DNA of 64,000 nucleotides from Gammaproteobacteria bacterium (GCA_965116495.1 OZ220696.1:928001-992000), one strand, 5' to 3'. Counted from the first letter of the stretch, positions 43,001-52,160 are shown. Notes: generated from the letters alone by a model not told the origin. Numbers and translations are program-made.

Positions 43001-43073
43001 GAGATAACAAAGTATTCTTCAAATAATTTGGACTCATTATTCATAACTGATTTTGCGCTTTGCTGAGTACTAG

Positions 43074-43296
43074 GGAACCTCTGATTAAGTCAGAGGTTCC
43101 TACGGTACAGGGATGTGCCGTCAAAATCAATGACTGTAGGTCATTGATTTTGGGAGCAAAACAAAAACCGCATTTTTGTTTTCACTCGCTACATCCTTGT
43201 AGCTCGCCGCAAGGCGGCAACAAGTTGTGCAAATCGGCTATCCTGCCGATTTGTGCGTGCTCTGACAAGTCCCGGACGGACTTGATCAGAGCTTCC
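43074..43296. mobile_element. MITE with CTAG target duplication
   Basis: Ends ggaacctctgattaagtc / gacttgatcagagcttcc; CTAG at 43070-43073 and 43297-43300. Confidence 0.75.
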
Positions 43297-43755
43297 CTAG
43301 ATTATCAATTCATTCAATTCCGGTTTGTTTTCCTTCAACCAGTTTCTGAGAACGCTCAACAGATATTCCGCGTGTGAGATGCATTCATCTACTGCACTTA
43401 CGGGTATGATATCTCCCGAGTAATCAGCTACATTACGCTGCTTTCTTAGCGCGTCCAGCACGATGACTGTTCTATTATCGAGGCTAATCGTCTGAGTAAG
43501 CGACTGTATCATTATCATATGATGCCCTGGTTTATTTGTCAGTGTCCTGTATCCGTTTGCCTGCATGGCAGCATTAGCCAACTGCATAATGGCCTTGTAG
43601 GCGACATCAAACCGGTTTTCGGCACTGATCTCCGTGACATAGGCATCTTTAATATTACGTTCGGCTGCTGAGATTAATCGTTTTATTACAGCCGCATCAG
43701 GGTCGGTTTTGTCAAGCGATATCCCTACCAGATTATCCAAGCCCATGGCCATCAC
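43297..43755 (-). CDS. HEPN-domain protein (toxin partner of MNT)
   Basis: RFDVAYKA, GYR...PGHH, LRKQRN.ADY.G. Confidence 0.75.
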   Translation of the reverse strand: MMAMGLDNLVGISLDKTDPDAAVIKRLISAAERNIKDAYVTEISAENRFDVAYKAIMQLANAAMQANGYRTLTNKPGHHMIMIQSLTQTISLDNRTVIVLDALRKQRNVADYSGDIIPVSAVDECISHAEYLLSVLRNWLKENKPELNELII

Positions 43756-44314
43756 CTATCACATCCATTCTCGGTTTCAACAACAATTCTTCTACAAAAG
43801 TGTTCTTACTTTTTTTCATCAGTATCCATTCTTGCCTGCTATAGATCTTTGGATTGATTTCTCGGCCCAGAGTTTTCTGAACCAGATAAAGCAAACTCAC
43901 CACTTGGGAAAAACTTATGTCTCCGATAATCATTAAATCAATATCACTATCTGCTGTTTCTTCATTACTGGCTACTGAACCGTATATAAATGCCCAGTCA
44001 ATCTGTTCCGACAAGTCGGATAATGCCGAATTGATTGAACCGACGATACCGGAAGTTTTCTTTATTAATCCTGACAATTCCAAATAAATCGGGCAGTCCG
44101 GATTCGCCTGGTAATGATGCTGGTTTCCGATCTTTGTCATTCGAAGAATGCCGGCAGCCCGCATCCGGTCCAGTTCGCGCTTGATTGTGGCTACCCCCAT
44201 CCCTGTCAACCGCAGTATTTCCTTGACGTAGAAGCTTTTATCTGGCTGTGTAAATAACAGGCTCAAAACTTTCTGTTGGGTAACCGTAAAGAGTGCACCG
44301 CTTAATTGACTCAC
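43733..44314 (-). CDS. HTH-nucleotidyltransferase (MNT) antitoxin
   Basis: N-terminal wHTH; IYGSVA...SDIDLMIIG, LGREINP. Confidence 0.85.
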   Translation of the reverse strand: MSQLSGALFTVTQQKVLSLLFTQPDKSFYVKEILRLTGMGVATIKRELDRMRAAGILRMTKIGNQHHYQANPDCPIYLELSGLIKKTSGIVGSINSALSDLSEQIDWAFIYGSVASNEETADSDIDLMIIGDISFSQVVSLLYLVQKTLGREINPKIYSRQEWILMKKSKNTFVEELLLKPRMDVIGDGHGLG

Positions 44315-44674: not shown

Positions 44675-45140
44675 ATGAAACTCCGTGTCATTATCCTGTT
44701 CTTCGCCTTAATACTGCAAGTTATTGGCAGTCCATCCATCGCTGTTCCTGAAACACCGCCTAACATCATTCTAATCCTGGCCGATGACCTGGGTTATGGC
44801 GATGTCGGCATCTTCGGGGCTGAACTGGTCAAGACCCCACACCTGGACCACCTGGCAGCAGAGCGAATCACCACATGATGTATTGTATTACTTCAGCGAT
44901 GAGCGAATCGCTGCGCTGCGCACCCCGAACTGGAAGATGCTGGTGCAGGCACGCTATCGCGGTATCGACCGCCGGTTGCCGGCGCACGACGTCCTGTTAT
45001 TGTTCGATATGCGCACAGATCCGCAGGAGCGTTACAGTATAGCGGCACACCGGCCCGGCAAGTGGCAGGAGTTGCAGGCTTACCTGGCACGCGGACAACA
45101 GGAACTGGAAGCATTGGCGCGGAAAACAGGAAAAAACTGA
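44675..45140 (+). pseudogene. Sulfatase remnant with internal deletion and frameshift
   Basis: Signal peptide + [24 protein letters not shown] joined out of frame to ALR..NWK..LFD...DPQE; CxPxR absent. Confidence 0.85.
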
Positions 45141-45428: not shown

Positions 45429-45726
45429 AACTGCGTTTTTCGTGCACCAAAACAGGGCTTTAAAGGGACATCAGAAGCTACGCACGTAGCCCACAGCGTA
45501 TCAGGATGATCGTGCCGTCAGACTGGAAGGGGAATCTTAAAACCCCGTTTTTGATGGCAAAAAGGGGGGGTTAAGGGCAAATAAGTGGCGCATATGGCAC
45601 ATAAACTGAATGAAAACAGATAGTTAGGGCGGTCCCACCTTACCCCCCTACCCCCTACCCCCCAGAAGTGGCTCAAGCGTGGGCGGGAGAAACTTGAAAA
45701 TCCGTATCGTTAATGAGGGTTTTACC

Positions 45727-45975
45727 TTGCTAACCAAAATACAGAAATGGGGGAACAGTCAGGGTCTCCGGTTTCCCAGGAATCTTCTGAATGAAGCCCA
45801 AATGAACGTAGGTGATGAAGTGAAAGTTCTAATCCGTAAGGGTCAAATAATTGTAGAACCTGTAACTAAAGTACGAGGTCGCTATGATTTGAAGGAACTG
45901 GTTGCAAAGATGCCGGAAAACTATCGGCATGAGGAAATGGACTGAGGTCCGCCGGTTGGCAAGGAAGTTTGGTAG
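45727..45975 (+). pseudogene. mazE: MazE/AbrB antitoxin with premature stop
   Basis: KIQKWGNSQGLR...YDLKELV; EEMD*GPPVGKEVW with TGA at 45943 where the family has Trp. Confidence 0.75.
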
Positions 45976-46393: not shown

Positions 46394-47335
46394 TCAGTTG
46401 GCCGCATCAGTTGACTCCCAAGGGTCGTTCCGTACTCGGTAAGTGTAGAACCAGTTTTTGATGGAGTCTTCTGCCTGTTGCCAACGCTTTTTTGCCGTTT
46501 CCGAGGTTAAATCCCAAACTTTGACGTAAAACACGCAGGAATAATCCCGAATTTGTCCGTTTTTACCCATCTCCTTGATCGGCCTTGCAGTTTTATCTAA
46601 CTCAAGTAGGGTAATACTGCTGGCTGTTTGTAGTGGCGCTAACGGTAATTTTGCATATTCTTCCGCATAGGTAACAGGTGCTGTTTGTCCACTTTCATCT
46701 ATGGCGCTTCCCGGTGGCGGGTTGCGCAACCTGATGTTCAGGCGCTCGTCGTACACCGCAATGTCCAGCAGATAATTGGGCTTTTCGTAACGCTCGCCGT
46801 TTCGAGTTTCAAGCGTGTACCAACAGGGCGGGTCGATACCTTTTCTGCTATATCGTCCTGCCTGGAGTTGCGTGGTTGTCCCCGGATATTTATCGCATTC
46901 TTTTTTACATTTAGCGGATGGCTCTGGACCTGTAGTATTTGTTTGCGGCCTTGGCCCAGGAGTATCTTGTGAGCCATTGCCACTCCCAACGGTTGTAATA
47001 TCGGTCGGAGGTGTCCCGCTCGGGGTTTTAGATTCTCCATTTGTCGGCTTTGCGAATATGGTAGGTGTTTGCGGTTCTGGTTCAGGAGTATCTTGTAGAC
47101 CATAACCGCTCGCAACGGTCGTAATCTCGTCTGGAGGTGGTGTCCCTCTCAGGGTTTCCGGTTCACTTGGCACCTCTGTGCCTGTGGTCTCTTCTTGACC
47201 ATTTTTCGACGCTTCATTTTTATCAGTTTCAACAGCATACAAAGCCAATAGCAACAGAAATAACAGCAGGATAAAAATTTCTGCGATTGTCAGGCCAAGA
47301 GTCAATCCCCTGCGGTACGGTTTAAGATCGGCCAT
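46394..47335 (-). CDS. Single-pass membrane protein, MotB/ZorB-like position, non-OmpA C-terminal domain
   Basis: TM GLTIAEIFILLLFLLLLAL with an acidic residue; Pro/Thr linker; GIDPPCW...CVFYV domain. Confidence 0.6.
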   Translation of the reverse strand: MADLKPYRRGLTLGLTIAEIFILLLFLLLLALYAVETDKNEASKNGQEETTGTEVPSEPETLRGTPPPDEITTVASGYGLQDTPEPEPQTPTIFAKPTNGESKTPSGTPPTDITTVGSGNGSQDTPGPRPQTNTTGPEPSAKCKKECDKYPGTTTQLQAGRYSRKGIDPPCWYTLETRNGERYEKPNYLLDIAVYDERLNIRLRNPPPGSAIDESGQTAPVTYAEEYAKLPLAPLQTASSITLLELDKTARPIKEMGKNGQIRDYSCVFYVKVWDLTSETAKKRWQQAEDSIKNWFYTYRVRNDPWESTDAAN

Positions 47336-47339
47336 GCGT

Positions 47340-48695
47340 TCAACTGTCGCGCACCACGCGCGTCAGGTCTTCAATAGCCTGAGTCAAAGACATACGAACT
47401 TCTTGTGACATCAATTGCCACTGCTCTGCCTCTTTACGCAATACCACTACCAGATCGTCAAATTGTTGTGTATATTGCGGCATGGTTTCTGTAGCCTTGT
47501 TAAGCGAATCGGAAAATGTTCTGGTTGTATCGGGCAAGGCGACTGCCGCCTGCTTTATTCCGTTCACGGCAGCATCAAGAACCGTCAACGTTTGTTGCAG
47601 ACTGCCTTGCAGCGGGTCAAACCCGGCAGCAAGAGTTTTAGTGTTTCGTGCCGTTGTTTGCAGGTCGTTGACTATATTTTGCAAATCCTGGGTGATTGGA
47701 TTGATGGATTGCCAGTGCTCTGTCACGGCCCGCAGCGCTGTCACCAATTGCTCAAGTTGTTGCGTATATTGCGGCATGATTTTCGACGCTTGAGAAAGAG
47801 AATCCGAAAATGTTATCGCAGTGTCTGGTAAAACTGCCGTGGCCTGCTCTATTTTGGGCATAGCCTTTTCAAGCAGCACTACCACCTGCTCGACTCCGGT
47901 AGTCAGTGAATCGGATTTGGAAGAAAAGGCTTCTGCCTGCCGGGCAGTTATTTGCAGATTATTGACAACATTTTGCAGCGCTGTTGCTGCTTTGCCCAGA
48001 TCTTCAACCATGCTCGCGGACAGTGTTGAGAACATGCGCGCCTGCTCTTCGGCAGCCTCTTTCATTTGCCTGTTTATCTCTGTGCGGGCCTTTTGCGATT
48101 CCTGGGTTGTTTCATTGGTAGACTGTATAACAGCATGGCGAAACACACTCACATCTGCAATTGTTTGCGTCAGTTCTGAACGAAGTTTGAATGAGGAGTC
48201 GGCGAGGCTCTCTCGTGGCCCGCTGAGTTCTAAACGGTCTTCCTTACCCGGCGTGTAGAGCCAACGTCGTCTACGTTGCAACTGCTTTTCGGCATCTTCA
48301 GGTATGTTTTCAGCGCCCTCACGCTGTAACAGCAAAACACGAAACAATATACCGAAAATTGTGGAAATAAGCGCGATACCGAAGCTGCCGATTAATTTCT
48401 CAGTCCGCTCGGCAGCGTTAATCTGCTCGCTATCGAGCATGAATAAGGTTACCAGGGAATAAACAAGAGCTACCAGGGTAAAGAGCAGTCCGAGGTAGTA
48501 AACGTTGTCCGAGTGATATGAGATGGCGCTATCATTTCGAGCCTTGTAGTAATACCAGCACAGGCAAAGGAAACAGATAGATACAGCCCAAGATGATCCG
48601 TGAGCCGGGTTACTAACCAAGCCGCGCACTACACATGACGATACGCCACCGCCTGACAGCAGAATCACAAAAAGGTTCTTGTTGAACCAAGTCAC
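47340..48695 (-). CDS. MotA/TolQ/ExbB (ZorA-like) membrane subunit with long helical tail
   Basis: YYLGLLFTLVAL and FGIALISTIFGILFR TM motifs; GTG start 48695 overlaps upstream TGA. Confidence 0.65.
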   Translation of the reverse strand: MTWFNKNLFVILLSGGGVSSCVVRGLVSNPAHGSSWAVSICFLCLCWYYYKARNDSAISYHSDNVYYLGLLFTLVALVYSLVTLFMLDSEQINAAERTEKLIGSFGIALISTIFGILFRVLLLQREGAENIPEDAEKQLQRRRRWLYTPGKEDRLELSGPRESLADSSFKLRSELTQTIADVSVFRHAVIQSTNETTQESQKARTEINRQMKEAAEEQARMFSTLSASMVEDLGKAATALQNVVNNLQITARQAEAFSSKSDSLTTGVEQVVVLLEKAMPKIEQATAVLPDTAITFSDSLSQASKIMPQYTQQLEQLVTALRAVTEHWQSINPITQDLQNIVNDLQTTARNTKTLAAGFDPLQGSLQQTLTVLDAAVNGIKQAAVALPDTTRTFSDSLNKATETMPQYTQQFDDLVVVLRKEAEQWQLMSQEVRMSLTQAIEDLTRVVRDS

Positions 48696-49480
48696 AGCGG
48701 TGTTTGCCTGACAACGCGACCACCAAAGGCTTCTATTACCTGGGTCCACCAGAAATAGTGTTCTCGAGTTTGTTTATTCTCTAACCCGGGTCTACGCACG
48801 TAGAACATCCAGACATCTACACCGCTGAGGTTACTACTCATTGCAGCATAACCAGGCATTGATTTGAACGTTGCCATATCTGGCAGTGAATTGTAGTGAG
48901 ACAAGAGTTCAGAGTTTTGCAGCATGTCTGAAAACAATAGGATGCGCGTCGGCTTTTGTTGTGCCTCGACGCCTAAATTCGGCACATGGCGGGCAGTTAC
49001 TAATGCGATAGATTCCAGCAAAGGTGACTGCTTGCCTTCAACCTGCTCGTTAAGCCTAGGCAGGGCTCGTATTATCGAATTTTCAAAGCGCCTCCAATTT
49101 TCTCGTGCCTTTTTGGGGCTGCTAAAAAAATCGTCTCTCAAAGTACGATCGTCGGGGTTCCCCGGATTGCAAACCCGCAAAGGCCTGCCAATTTCTGTAA
49201 TTTGGGGCGTCAACTGGTAAACAATCAATTCATGTCCATGTTGTAAGTAATGCTGATTATCAGTATCACGGAACGCTCTGAGCAGATGTTTCAATCTCTC
49301 TTGTGCAACCAGAGTTAGCGTGTCCGTGGTGTCTATCAACAGGATAACCTGCTGTTCACTACCGCTTCTTGGGCAGAGGGTTCGATGGTCAAATTCTTCG
49401 TTCGCATCAACTGCTCCTGATAACAACATTATGATCAAGATACTCGGGAACAAGGGTCGGCAAGTGTGGTGTGTGTTCAT
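48692..49480 (-). CDS. Exported vWA-like protein
   Basis: Signal peptide (..GAVDA); ILLIDTTDT, QSPLLESI, ILLFSDMLQNS. Confidence 0.6.
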   Translation of the reverse strand: MNTHHTCRPLFPSILIIMLLSGAVDANEEFDHRTLCPRSGSEQQVILLIDTTDTLTLVAQERLKHLLRAFRDTDNQHYLQHGHELIVYQLTPQITEIGRPLRVCNPGNPDDRTLRDDFFSSPKKARENWRRFENSIIRALPRLNEQVEGKQSPLLESIALVTARHVPNLGVEAQQKPTRILLFSDMLQNSELLSHYNSLPDMATFKSMPGYAAMSSNLSGVDVWMFYVRRPGLENKQTREHYFWWTQVIEAFGGRVVRQTPL

Positions 49481-50946
49481 AAACTGCCTCGTTCCGGGTC
49501 AACGCTTTCGGACATTACATCTGCGAGTTCTCTGAATTTTTTTCCGGCTGCATCAGCTACTCTGTCAACTTCTGCTCGTGCGTCCTCTGCAGCTTGCACT
49601 ATCTTCTCAACATTGGTTGCATCCTGAGGGGTGAAATCCGGTGGCTGGGTGAGATGTCCGTTAATTGGTGTATCTGTGCCGAAATAAGCTGGGGGTGGTT
49701 CACTACGAGTCTCCAAATTCCGATCCTGATACAACCTCATGAGGCGCGTCTGCTGTGTCGCAAGGGTGGATATCCAGGTTATATAGTTGTTTTGCAAGGT
49801 TTCAGCGCGATTGATCAAGTCAGCGCGTTGCGACCGTATATTAACTGTCTTAACACGCTCATCGGCGACTTTGTCCCTGGCAGCTTTGATTGTCCGGTCA
49901 ATTTTTGTCCCTACCGTTTTAATCAACTCAGTGTATTGTTTGTGGGCCAGATTTCGTTCCACATCACGCTTCATGTATCCCGGACAAGGGTCCAACATGG
50001 AATACCATTTGTAAGTGGAGCCAGCAAAACAACCTATTCCGATGACAATTAGTAAAACAGACAATACTGAGTCTATGCCGAATGGTGAACTTTTGAACCT
50101 GTCCATCGCCTGTATCGTGTAGTCAACAAAACCATAATCGACAGGTTCAGAATCGAAAGTATCCCAATTTATAACGTTCTGCCCCTCGTTCGACTTAACC
50201 TCGGTAAGCGCATCACGATAATGCCCCACGCCAAAATTGAATATCAAAACAAGAAGGAAAAAGGGGACAGAAATAGACGCCAGCCAGCGTAATTTCCATG
50301 AGGTGATATTCTTGTAGCGCCAAAACAACCCAACTATAGCTGCGCCGATCACTACATTGACCGCTGTGATAAGGACCGTCTGACCAAAGGCTGGCAGCCA
50401 ACCTACAAAATCGATCAGCAGGAATGCATTCAGGGCTGCTTCGACTATCAGGATGCTCAACAAAATGATGCCGGACTGCCAAGGACTATAACTGGCGCTC
50501 CGGGTCAAGCGGTTTTCCTGGCGGAATTGTTCGTAGGATTTTTCCGCATCCTGCCACTTGCCTTTTTTTATTATTCCTTCCTGATCGAAGTTATTTATTT
50601 CATCCTCCAACTCCTGTTTCATGTTGTTTTTTACATCATTGATGCCGTTTATTTTCGCTTGAGGTTCCAGAATTTCTTCGAACGGAGTCAAGCGAGCTGA
50701 AAACCCGGTAAAATGCCTGGCCAGTGCCTGGTGGGTCTGTTGTGCGGTTTGTTTTATTTGCTCTACAATGCCGTATTCCAGTTCACTCATGCCTGTTGCT
50801 TGTGCAGCAGGAAGATTTTTCCGGCCGTCTTCAATGCCTTGCTTTGCGATGCGCTTCTTTTCTTCGTCAATATTCACCGTCAGAAAGGTTTCCTGGCTCT
50901 CATCAAAAGCGTTATTTCTCAGGCGTATTGTCGTCATTGGTTTCAT
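49477..50946 (-). CDS. Multi-pass membrane protein with coiled-coil termini (start 50946 or 51006)
   Basis: Long ORF, about 4 TM segments, NFGVGHYRDAL, DP.PGY; ATGA overlap with next gene. Confidence 0.8.
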   Translation of the reverse strand: MKPMTTIRLRNNAFDESQETFLTVNIDEEKKRIAKQGIEDGRKNLPAAQATGMSELEYGIVEQIKQTAQQTHQALARHFTGFSARLTPFEEILEPQAKINGINDVKNNMKQELEDEINNFDQEGIIKKGKWQDAEKSYEQFRQENRLTRSASYSPWQSGIILLSILIVEAALNAFLLIDFVGWLPAFGQTVLITAVNVVIGAAIVGLFWRYKNITSWKLRWLASISVPFFLLVLIFNFGVGHYRDALTEVKSNEGQNVINWDTFDSEPVDYGFVDYTIQAMDRFKSSPFGIDSVLSVLLIVIGIGCFAGSTYKWYSMLDPCPGYMKRDVERNLAHKQYTELIKTVGTKIDRTIKAARDKVADERVKTVNIRSQRADLINRAETLQNNYITWISTLATQQTRLMRLYQDRNLETRSEPPPAYFGTDTPINGHLTQPPDFTPQDATNVEKIVQAAEDARAEVDRVADAAGKKFRELADVMSESVDPERGSL

Positions 50947-51059
50947 CACGTACCAGAATATTGCAAAAAACGCATCATATTCTATCCTGTATTTTTTGCA
51001 AAACACTGACGGACGTTAATCAGTCATTGATTTCCCCACTGCTGTTCCCACTTTTACGG

Positions 51060-51374
51060 CTACCATTCCTCTTCTGGCTGCAACAATGCGTCTTCCGGTT
51101 CCCAGATATCTTCCGGATTCCAGGGACACCCTTGTATTCGCTCCCACTGCTGTTCCGCTTCCCATTGCGCCCGATGTTGTGCTTTCCATTCCTCCTCTTC
51201 CTGCTCCCACCGCTGTTCCGCTTCCCATTTCTCCTGCTCCCACTCCGCCCGCTCCTTTCGTTCCTGTTCCCACTCCCATTGCAGCCACTTTTCTTCTCGC
51301 ATCCACCGCTGCTCCCATTCCCATTGCTCCAGTCGCAGTTTCCACAATGCTTTGTTTTCGTTGTGAGATACCAT
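51060..51374 (-). CDS. Possible Trp/Glu/Gln-rich low-complexity peptide
   Basis: AAGGG before ATG; repeated WEQ/WEAEQ units; coding status uncertain. Confidence 0.35.
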   Translation of the reverse strand: MVSHNENKALWKLRLEQWEWEQRWMREEKWLQWEWEQERKERAEWEQEKWEAEQRWEQEEEEWKAQHRAQWEAEQQWERIQGCPWNPEDIWEPEDALLQPEEEW

Positions 51375-51452: not shown

Positions 51453-51590
51453 GTCCTGCTGCTGTTCGATATGCACAACGACCCGCAGGAGCGTTACAGC
51501 CTGGCGGGGCACAGGCCCGACAAGTGGCAGAAGTTACAGGCTTACATGAAGCGCGGGCAACGGGAACTTGAAGCGCCGGAACATCAATAG
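51453..51590 (+). pseudogene. 3' end of a second sulfatase paralogue
   Basis: VLLLFDMHNDPQERYSLAGHRPDKWQKLQAY aligns without gaps to 44991-45112. Confidence 0.8.
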
Positions 51591-51604: not shown

Positions 51605-51904
51605 CTACTTGTTTTCAGCTGTCCGCTTACGCTCCATAGCAGCTTGCAGACATTTTTCCCGCTCCGCCGGCCCTCGATGAACTTGACCTGGATTTGGCTT
51701 GTATCCCTTCAAATGAGTATAATAATCAAACTCGGGTTCTTTGGTAGCATTCGTCCGGCAACCATCCTTGTTCCGGGCAATACGTTCCATGGCAGCCTGC
51801 AAACGTTTTTCACGCTCAGCTTTTCCATGAATTTTGCGCGGGTCCAGATCGTGCTTGTCGAAATAAGCGTTATAATCAAATTCCGGATCTTCGGTAGTAC
51901 TCAT
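51605..51904 (-). CDS. Putative antitoxin partner of BrnT with internal duplication
   Basis: PEFDY...AEREK.LQAAMER occurs twice; overlaps brnT 3' end. Confidence 0.6.
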   Translation of the reverse strand: MSTTEDPEFDYNAYFDKHDLDPRKIHGKAEREKRLQAAMERIARNKDGCRTNATKEPEFDYYTHLKGYKPNPGQVHRGPAEREKCLQAAMERKRTAENK

Positions 51905-52160
51905 CAAGCGACCTCCCTGCTGCATCAAATGCAGTAATCAATCGATAAATCGGTAAATCTTCATCGGAATAGATAATGGCCAATATCCGGTCCCCGGCTG
52001 TTGCCCCTATCCACATCCACCGTCCGGCAGGCCCCTCTAGGTCGATATACCCACATCCATTCGGATCATCGAATGCAGATACAACCTCGTAAAACTGAAC
52101 CCTATGTTTTCGCTGAACTTCCCTGTACTTGTCAGTGTCCCATATAAATCCGATATCCAT
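51876..52160 (-). CDS. brnT: BrnT family toxin
   Basis: FIWD..K....KH.V.F.E....FDDP...RW..IG...RLITA. Confidence 0.75.
   Translation of the reverse strand: MDIGFIWDTDKYREVQRKHRVQFYEVVSAFDDPNGCGYIDLEGPAGRWMWIGATAGDRILAIIYSDEDLPIYRLITAFDAAGRSLDEYYRRSGI

Follow-up and report, generated by a model that had tools for sequence, protein, structure and literature searches.

We analysed a four-gene cassette located at positions 46394..50946 of a 64,000-nt stretch of DNA (the window; Gammaproteobacteria bacterium, GCA_965116495.1 OZ220696.1:928001-992000), which an earlier note had proposed to be a new Zorya-like membrane-motor system. The cassette is composed of four open reading frames (ORFs) on the minus strand, all of which were confirmed to be open: G1 (49477..50946, 489 aa), with four predicted membrane helices (about residues 157-313) flanked on either side by a long helical stretch predicted to be cytoplasmic; G2 (48692..49480, 262 aa), an exported vWA-fold protein; G3 (47340..48695, 451 aa, GTG start), a predicted A subunit of the ZorA/MotA/ExbB family; and G4 (46394..47335, 313 aa), a predicted B subunit with one membrane helix. 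ORF calls and reading of the junctions confirm the close spacing described in the note, with an ATGA overlap at 49477-49480, a GTGA overlap at 48692-48695 and a 4-nt gap between G3 and G4. Longer alternative starts are present at 51006 for G1 and at 48749 for G3; the 48695 start of G3 agrees with its entry in the protein collection, which is also 451 aa. The note was also right that the cassette is more AT-rich than the core genes (GC content 47.9% versus 54.7% for the genome, with 4.4% of equal-sized genome windows as low) and that its genes are intact amid decayed neighbours, in this case sulfatase and peptidase fragments.

Motors of the ion-driven 5:2 type serve flagellar movement, nutrient import, envelope maintenance, gliding and Zorya immunity. 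The LGLLFT and FGIALISTIFG helices and the long helical tail previously described in G3 are present in the sequence; the pore helices span residues 64-89 and 100-125 and carry Thr73 and Thr112, respectively. Pfam MotA_ExbB (PF01618) matches the membrane part of G3 in 23 of 73 members at E ≤ 0.1 (best 8.4e-5; the next family matches 8), the window protein itself scoring 13.3 bits against a cut-off of 22.9. When the membrane part is searched alone, the PADLOC ZorA type II models are best (16/73 members; best E 3.1e-8, for a relative), and the window's own G3 is a remote match to PADLOC ZorA (E 0.016). In a profile alignment with ExbB/TolQ (P 57.8, E 1e-4), T73 and T112 fall at the positions of the threonine ring. 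Invariance of the YY-G-LFT motif in the loci L004-L074 is circular, since Thr73 was part of the search pattern, and the threonines were rechecked on other sequence sets: both are invariant in 72 sequences from a protein search, and in loci found without the G3 pattern Thr73 is present in 10/10 and Thr112 is shown in 8, the motif pattern having missed two. The tail ranges from 200 to 493 residues across relatives (median 320, n = 62) and is about 325 aa in the window protein, where it contains a 98-residue internal duplication (38/80 identical); it probably forms a helical bundle. Full-length G3 matches to ZorA, JetC and SMC in PADLOC and NCBIfam all lie within this tail and were set aside as coiled-coil. 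A complex prediction with four G3 membrane domains and two G4 helices scored 0.19, below the 0.32 mark, and when G3, the G3 membrane part, the G4 end domain and G1 were searched by sequence and by profile against solved structures, the rows were coiled-coil or noise only. On its family matches and conserved residues G3 is assigned to the ZorA/MotA family, with a threonine ring and a long tail, as the note had suggested.

The single membrane helix of G4 does carry an acidic residue, Glu19 (codon 47279-47281), which is Glu and not Asp in 62/62 relatives and in all 10 loci found without the G3 pattern; its role is inferred to be equivalent to that of the ZorB Asp. The helix is followed by a Pro/Thr-rich linker of about 120 residues with a 42-residue repeat and by an end domain (about residues 165-305) in which a Cys171-Cys267 pair is invariant. 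The end domain was modeled confidently (predicted local distance difference test (pLDDT) 90.5), and in a wide structural search Escherichia coli TolR (5by4) ranked first (Z 6.5, root mean square deviation (rmsd) 3.5, 84 residues aligned), with Haemophilus influenzae TolR (2jwk) third (Z 5.8, rmsd 2.7, 71 of 74) and ExbD (2pfu) at Z 4.2. This suggests that the window G4 probably ends in a TolR/ExbD-like domain. The window-type end is present in 63 of the 67 G4 proteins examined, OmpA takes its place in three, and the remaining one is split; an OmpA domain is absent from the window G4 by Pfam and by profile comparison, and is found behind the same helix motif in eight relatives (L158, L159, L162 and all five plasmid G4 proteins), which represent an alphaproteobacterial variant. 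The description of G4 as a MotB/ZorB-like protein without OmpA consequently holds for the window protein and fails for the family. In one OmpA-bearing relative (L162, 6391-8196, genome G261) a DUF1524/GmrSD_C HNH domain is fused behind the same membrane motif and OmpA, and would be periplasmic. G4 matches to LmuB and JetC were set aside as coiled-coil. In known motors, peptidoglycan is bound by ends of the TolR/ExbD type as well as by OmpA ends (PMC12905483, PMC11946911), and by inference the swap of end domains in G4 therefore fits a wall anchor.

The AlphaFold2 model of G2 (pLDDT 84.8) supports the earlier assignment as a vWA protein. The top Foldseek rows are vWA-bearing chains (best E 1.5e-5), and the 66 matches at E ≤ 0.001 are led by the TFIIH, Sec24 and Rpn10 vWA domains and by integrin I domains. 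The canonical vWA metal-site motif is DxSxS. In 150 G2 sequences, residues resembling a metal ion-dependent adhesion site are conserved (D50 in 150, T/S52 in 147, D53 in 138, S152 in 149 and D185 in 150), no conserved second Ser is seen, the metal site appears non-canonical, and a Cys36-Cys104 pair is invariant. A hydrophobic N-terminus is present in 147/149 sequences; no conserved column, His or acid precedes Cys36 in the 150. G1 has no Pfam or PADLOC match and none in NCBIfam under E 0.1, and Atlas gives unnamed clusters only. Its conserved residues, Glu169 in helix 1, Asn197, Asn237/His242/Arg244/Asp245 and Ser296, lie in and beside the membrane, and both of its long ends are predicted by charge bias to be inside.

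A pattern scan of species genomes using the G3 alignment yielded 71 loci, spanning Gamma- and Alphaproteobacteria, Acidobacteriota, Binatota, Nitrospinota, Gemmatimonadota, Ignavibacteriota and Thermodesulfobacteriota, and sponge-symbiont names are frequent among their record titles. All four genes were detected by profile in the order G1-G2-G3-G4 in 61 of these (a few frameshifted or split), which argues for more than a chance arrangement. The incomplete loci include L019, L056, L061, L064 and probably L049, which are cut by contig ends; L068 and L074, from which G4 is missing; and L037 (10001-12029), L047 (10001-11990) and L059, which have G3-G4 alone and come from small symbiont-type genomes in which no G2 was found elsewhere (three genomes). 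The window genome itself carries a second operon in the same order (G000:C1:2378746-2383710; 8747-13711 in L001), about 20% identical to the first. The G2 profile retrieves 1,561 clusters at 50% identity, 838 of them at E ≤ 1e-10, and ten sampled clusters are unnamed or "hypothetical". G2 is carried by 24 plasmid records, and the four genes are complete in 5/5 plasmid loci opened; a full copy is present on pRL11 of Rhizobium johnstonii 3841 (RL_RS31080-31095). G1 relatives have no match among phage records. The co-occurrence of the four genes, which the earlier note had put forward as a check, is borne out by the main set, the second copy and the plasmids.

An independent sample of 400 Pseudomonadota genomes contains a G2 relative in 13, with the full operon in four, G1-G2 without the motor in five (no motor gene adjacent or found by the G3 profile) and a remote OmpA form in four. 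G1-G2 is a separable core that also occurs apart from the motor. All four strong G3 matches in this sample sit in the full operons, and the sole non-member match of the G3 profile is a 731-codon frame, ZorA-like by our reading. The remote form (L170-L173), which is unannotated, encodes an OmpA glycine-zipper lipoprotein, then a multi-helix membrane protein and then a vWA protein; the vWA protein is clearly homologous to G2 (P 98), and the membrane protein matches G1 weakly (P 45). On one 36-kb contig (G245:C2; L167, L168) the G1-G2 pair occurs twice, adjoining a VirD4/TraG coupling-protein gene.

The cassette is mobile. G2 is present in 2/22 congeners, and the cassette is absent from the same site in a congener that is 96% identical in the flanks. 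The inserted segment is bracketed by an imperfect 122-bp direct repeat on the plus strand, formed by the end of the sulfatase gene (left copy 44991..45112, 81% identical to the right copy at 51453..51574), and congener G020, which lacks the cassette there, has a single copy of this sequence. Identity to the cassette of locus L004 is 95.5%, far above the 73-80% identity of the flanking genes, which argues for recent transfer. A quick tree, used for this point alone, shows the phyla intermixed.

Nuclease genes recur beside the cassette. Of 84 loci (89 less five near-duplicates), 12 have an SNase-family gene within 2.3 kb and four a DUF1524 HNH gene, and most of the linked nucleases have signal-like starts. 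The SNase expectation is about 0.4 of 84 loci, from about 120 matches in 101 genomes; this figure was summed by hand with an estimated mean genome size, and sets a Pfam model against a local profile. A thermonuclease gene adjoins 4/5 plasmid loci, which are independent cases. We also compared 148 of the 294 near ORFs, those of loci L001-L044, with 148 control ORFs from arbitrary regions, mostly of congeners, using Pfam and categories that we assigned ourselves: transposases number 6 versus 0 and nucleases 9 versus 0. The SNase gene upstream of the second operon copy, of a type fused to a helix-hairpin-helix (HhH) domain, is interrupted by two insertion sequences; its intact paralog is found at C1:2800530-2801396.

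Comparison with known systems places the motor in a familiar kind and identifies the partner module G1-G2 as what is new here. Like Zorya ZorAB, of which type II is closest, the cassette has an A subunit with a threonine ring and a long cytoplasmic tail (PMC11946911, PMC11890865) and a single-helix B subunit with a membrane acid, is patchy and mobile and, in its alphaproteobacterial variant, has an OmpA wall-binding domain. It differs in using Glu where Zorya uses Asp, in the long linker and TolR-like end of the window G4, in an extra N-terminal helix in G3, in having two membrane-bound or exported partners, G1 and the vWA protein G2, in place of ZorC/D/E/F/G, and in that the nucleases linked to it mostly look exported. 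With ExbB-ExbD and TolQ-TolR it probably shares PF01618-like pore helices and a B end domain, the latter most similar to TolR (5by4, 2jwk); unlike them, it has a long A-subunit tail and a B linker of about 120 residues rather than about 20 (PMC12905483). No TonB/TolA gene is found in the operon, G1 being a four-helix protein and G2 a vWA protein with no such Pfam match, and the cassette is not core, the genome keeping three ordinary ExbD/TolR genes. The vWA force transducers and TPH-vWA motors also encode a membrane-tethered or exported vWA beside a TolQ-like motor (PMC12204202), whereas in those families the vWA either forms the end of a TonB/TolA-like protein that has an SHLS helix or takes the place of the B subunit; the cassette has a separate B subunit, its G2 N-terminus has no conserved His or acid, and G1 has no counterpart there. 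Pfam, NCBIfam and PADLOC give no convincing assignment for the four genes and match no named system, in agreement with the unrecognised architecture noted earlier, and we found no description of the cassette in the open literature, a scope that excludes subscription papers and bioRxiv supplements, whose candidate-system tables could list it. The cassette lies outside Zorya (no effectors, Glu, no OmpA here), Ton/Tol (no transducer, a tailed A subunit) and the vWA-motor families; it is not Zorya proper, yet its motor likely works alike.

On sequence grounds G3 and G4 very probably constitute a ZorAB-like motor, likely a five-to-two ion-driven inner-membrane complex of the ZorAB/MotAB/ExbBD kind. 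Functional coupling of this motor to G1-G2 is probable, and the model predicts that the motor powers the membrane unit G1-G2 and so defends the cell against DNA that comes in through the envelope. In this model the periplasmic end of G4 (TolR-like here, OmpA in relatives) would grip the cell wall upon envelope disturbance, as ZorB does; ion flow past Glu19 would turn the G3 ring and tail; and the tail would engage the cytoplasmic helices of G1, which would stand in for the soluble effectors of Zorya. G2 may hold or sense a periplasmic ligand via its metal site, G1, with its buried polar residues, may be the output, as a gate or tether, and an exported nuclease, where present, would cut DNA in transit. 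Every functional step is modeled on Zorya and Ton/Tol (PMC11946911, PMC11890865, PMC12905483); Zorya requires its tail and its wall-binding domain (PMC11890865, PMC11946911). As the purpose of the cassette, defence at the envelope is our tentative first choice, held at a little under an even chance and ranked ahead of envelope mechanics, non-immune DNA handling and unlinked modules.

Several observations weigh against this interpretation. The SNase cases are not independent, because a single SNase-HhH subfamily, directly upstream of the operon, accounts for 6 of the 12; the alphaproteobacterial thermonucleases may merely mark accessory DNA; and neither nuclease family lies beside the window copy or in 68 of the 84 loci. 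Toxin-antitoxin (TA) or defence genes make up 8 clear and 4 doubtful of the 148 neighbours versus 10 of 148 controls (p 0.8), so that the suggested defence-island enrichment is not seen. TA neighbours are uninformative for defence, because arbitrary regions of congeneric genomes have them just as often; the TA flanks of the window, MazE and BrnT, do exist as the earlier note said and were rejected as a sign of defence. ZorC/D/E/F/G have no match in the four genes (PADLOC), the window flanks and the 148 neighbours (Pfam rather than PADLOC), as that note had also recognised. For the motor, the TolR match of the G4 end is middling, with RNase H-like folds tied at Z 5.7-5.8, Foldseek of this domain returns nothing at E ≤ 0.001, profile comparison with ExbD and OmpA gives no match, and the G4 helix matches ZorB models weakly (4/30 N-termini, E 0.001-0.07). 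Finally, the coupling is not obligatory, because each pair occurs without the other, G1-G2 in five genomes and G3-G4 in L037, L047 and L059.

The best-surviving alternative, somewhat unlikely in our estimate, is an accessory, non-immune role in envelope mechanics, in which the motor would pull on the wall or outer membrane via G1-G2 in adhesion, surface contact or repair, in the manner of Tol-Pal or of vWA-bearing transducers. The TolR/ExbD-like end of G4 and its Pro/Thr linker of TonB length (PMC12905483) are consistent with such a role, as are the remote relatives in which an OmpA lipoprotein accompanies the vWA and a protein resembling G1, the lack of enrichment of defence neighbours and the published proposal that vWA-motor pairs are force transducers (PMC12204202). 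It accounts less well for G3, whose tail is ZorA-like and which resembles ZorA models more closely than Pfam MotA_ExbB, or for rapid gain, loss and transfer between congeners; it leaves the nuclease link unexplained; and the Rhizobium 3841 homologs, identified as pRL110262-265 from the gene order, proved neutral in the two media reported (PMC5118466).

A role in DNA handling that is not anti-phage, by capture and degradation or import of extracellular DNA or by control of conjugation, is unlikely. It would suit the SNase fused to a helix-hairpin-helix DNA-binding domain directly upstream of six loci, the HNH domain fused to G4 in L162, the G1-G2 pair beside a VirD4-type gene in G245 and the 24 plasmid records with G2, yet most loci are without a nuclease, as given above, and no outer-membrane receptor, pilus or competence gene recurs among the flank clusters. 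Least probable of the four readings is that two loosely linked modules, a stand-alone vWA-regulated G1-G2 unit and a G3-G4 orphan motor or non-rotating ion channel, share an operon and nothing more: the separate occurrence of each pair and the missing G4 in two loci fit this, but translational coupling, the fixed order in most loci and the location of all four strong G3 matches in full operons argue against it. A housekeeping role was rejected, with G2 in 13/400 genomes and 2/22 congeners, the site empty in a congener 96% identical in the flanks and the homologs neutral in growth screens.

Within the defence interpretation, it is also conceivable, and in our judgement doubtful, that G1-G2 represents a new class of membrane machine, a vWA-gated unit on interchangeable envelope anchors which together with its exported nucleases would make up an immune system that halts invading DNA in the periplasm, short of the cytoplasm; the anchors, in that equally doubtful scheme, would be an OmpA lipoprotein or a ZorAB-like motor that uses glutamate and has either a TolR-like or an OmpA end. 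The cassette belongs to a widespread unnamed branch (838 vWA clusters) with an unusual residue at the proton site, in which the wall anchor is naturally exchanged and membrane partners replace soluble effectors. This branch may reveal by what route Zorya emerged from Ton/Tol-type motors and whether the periplasm can be a site of defence, and R. johnstonii 3841, for which mutant libraries exist, makes the system testable.

The flanks of the cassette contain, by Pfam, MazE (45679-45945), BrnT (51876-52160) and the sulfatase and peptidase fragments. Between 45679 and 46229, the MazE antitoxin is followed by further toxin-like remnants, which we take to be a truncated MazF start and, overlapping on the opposite strand, a RelE-like fragment. 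Directly upstream of G1, positions 51016-51374 form a low-complexity repeat without a Pfam match, with frames open on both strands (Glu/Trp-rich or Gly-rich). Further to the left, 43297-44314 encodes a nucleotidyltransferase with a helix-turn-helix (Pfam), whose partner is presumably HEPN-like, and next to it a 230-bp element (43070-43300) is repeated with 91-98% identity in at least eight other places in the genome.

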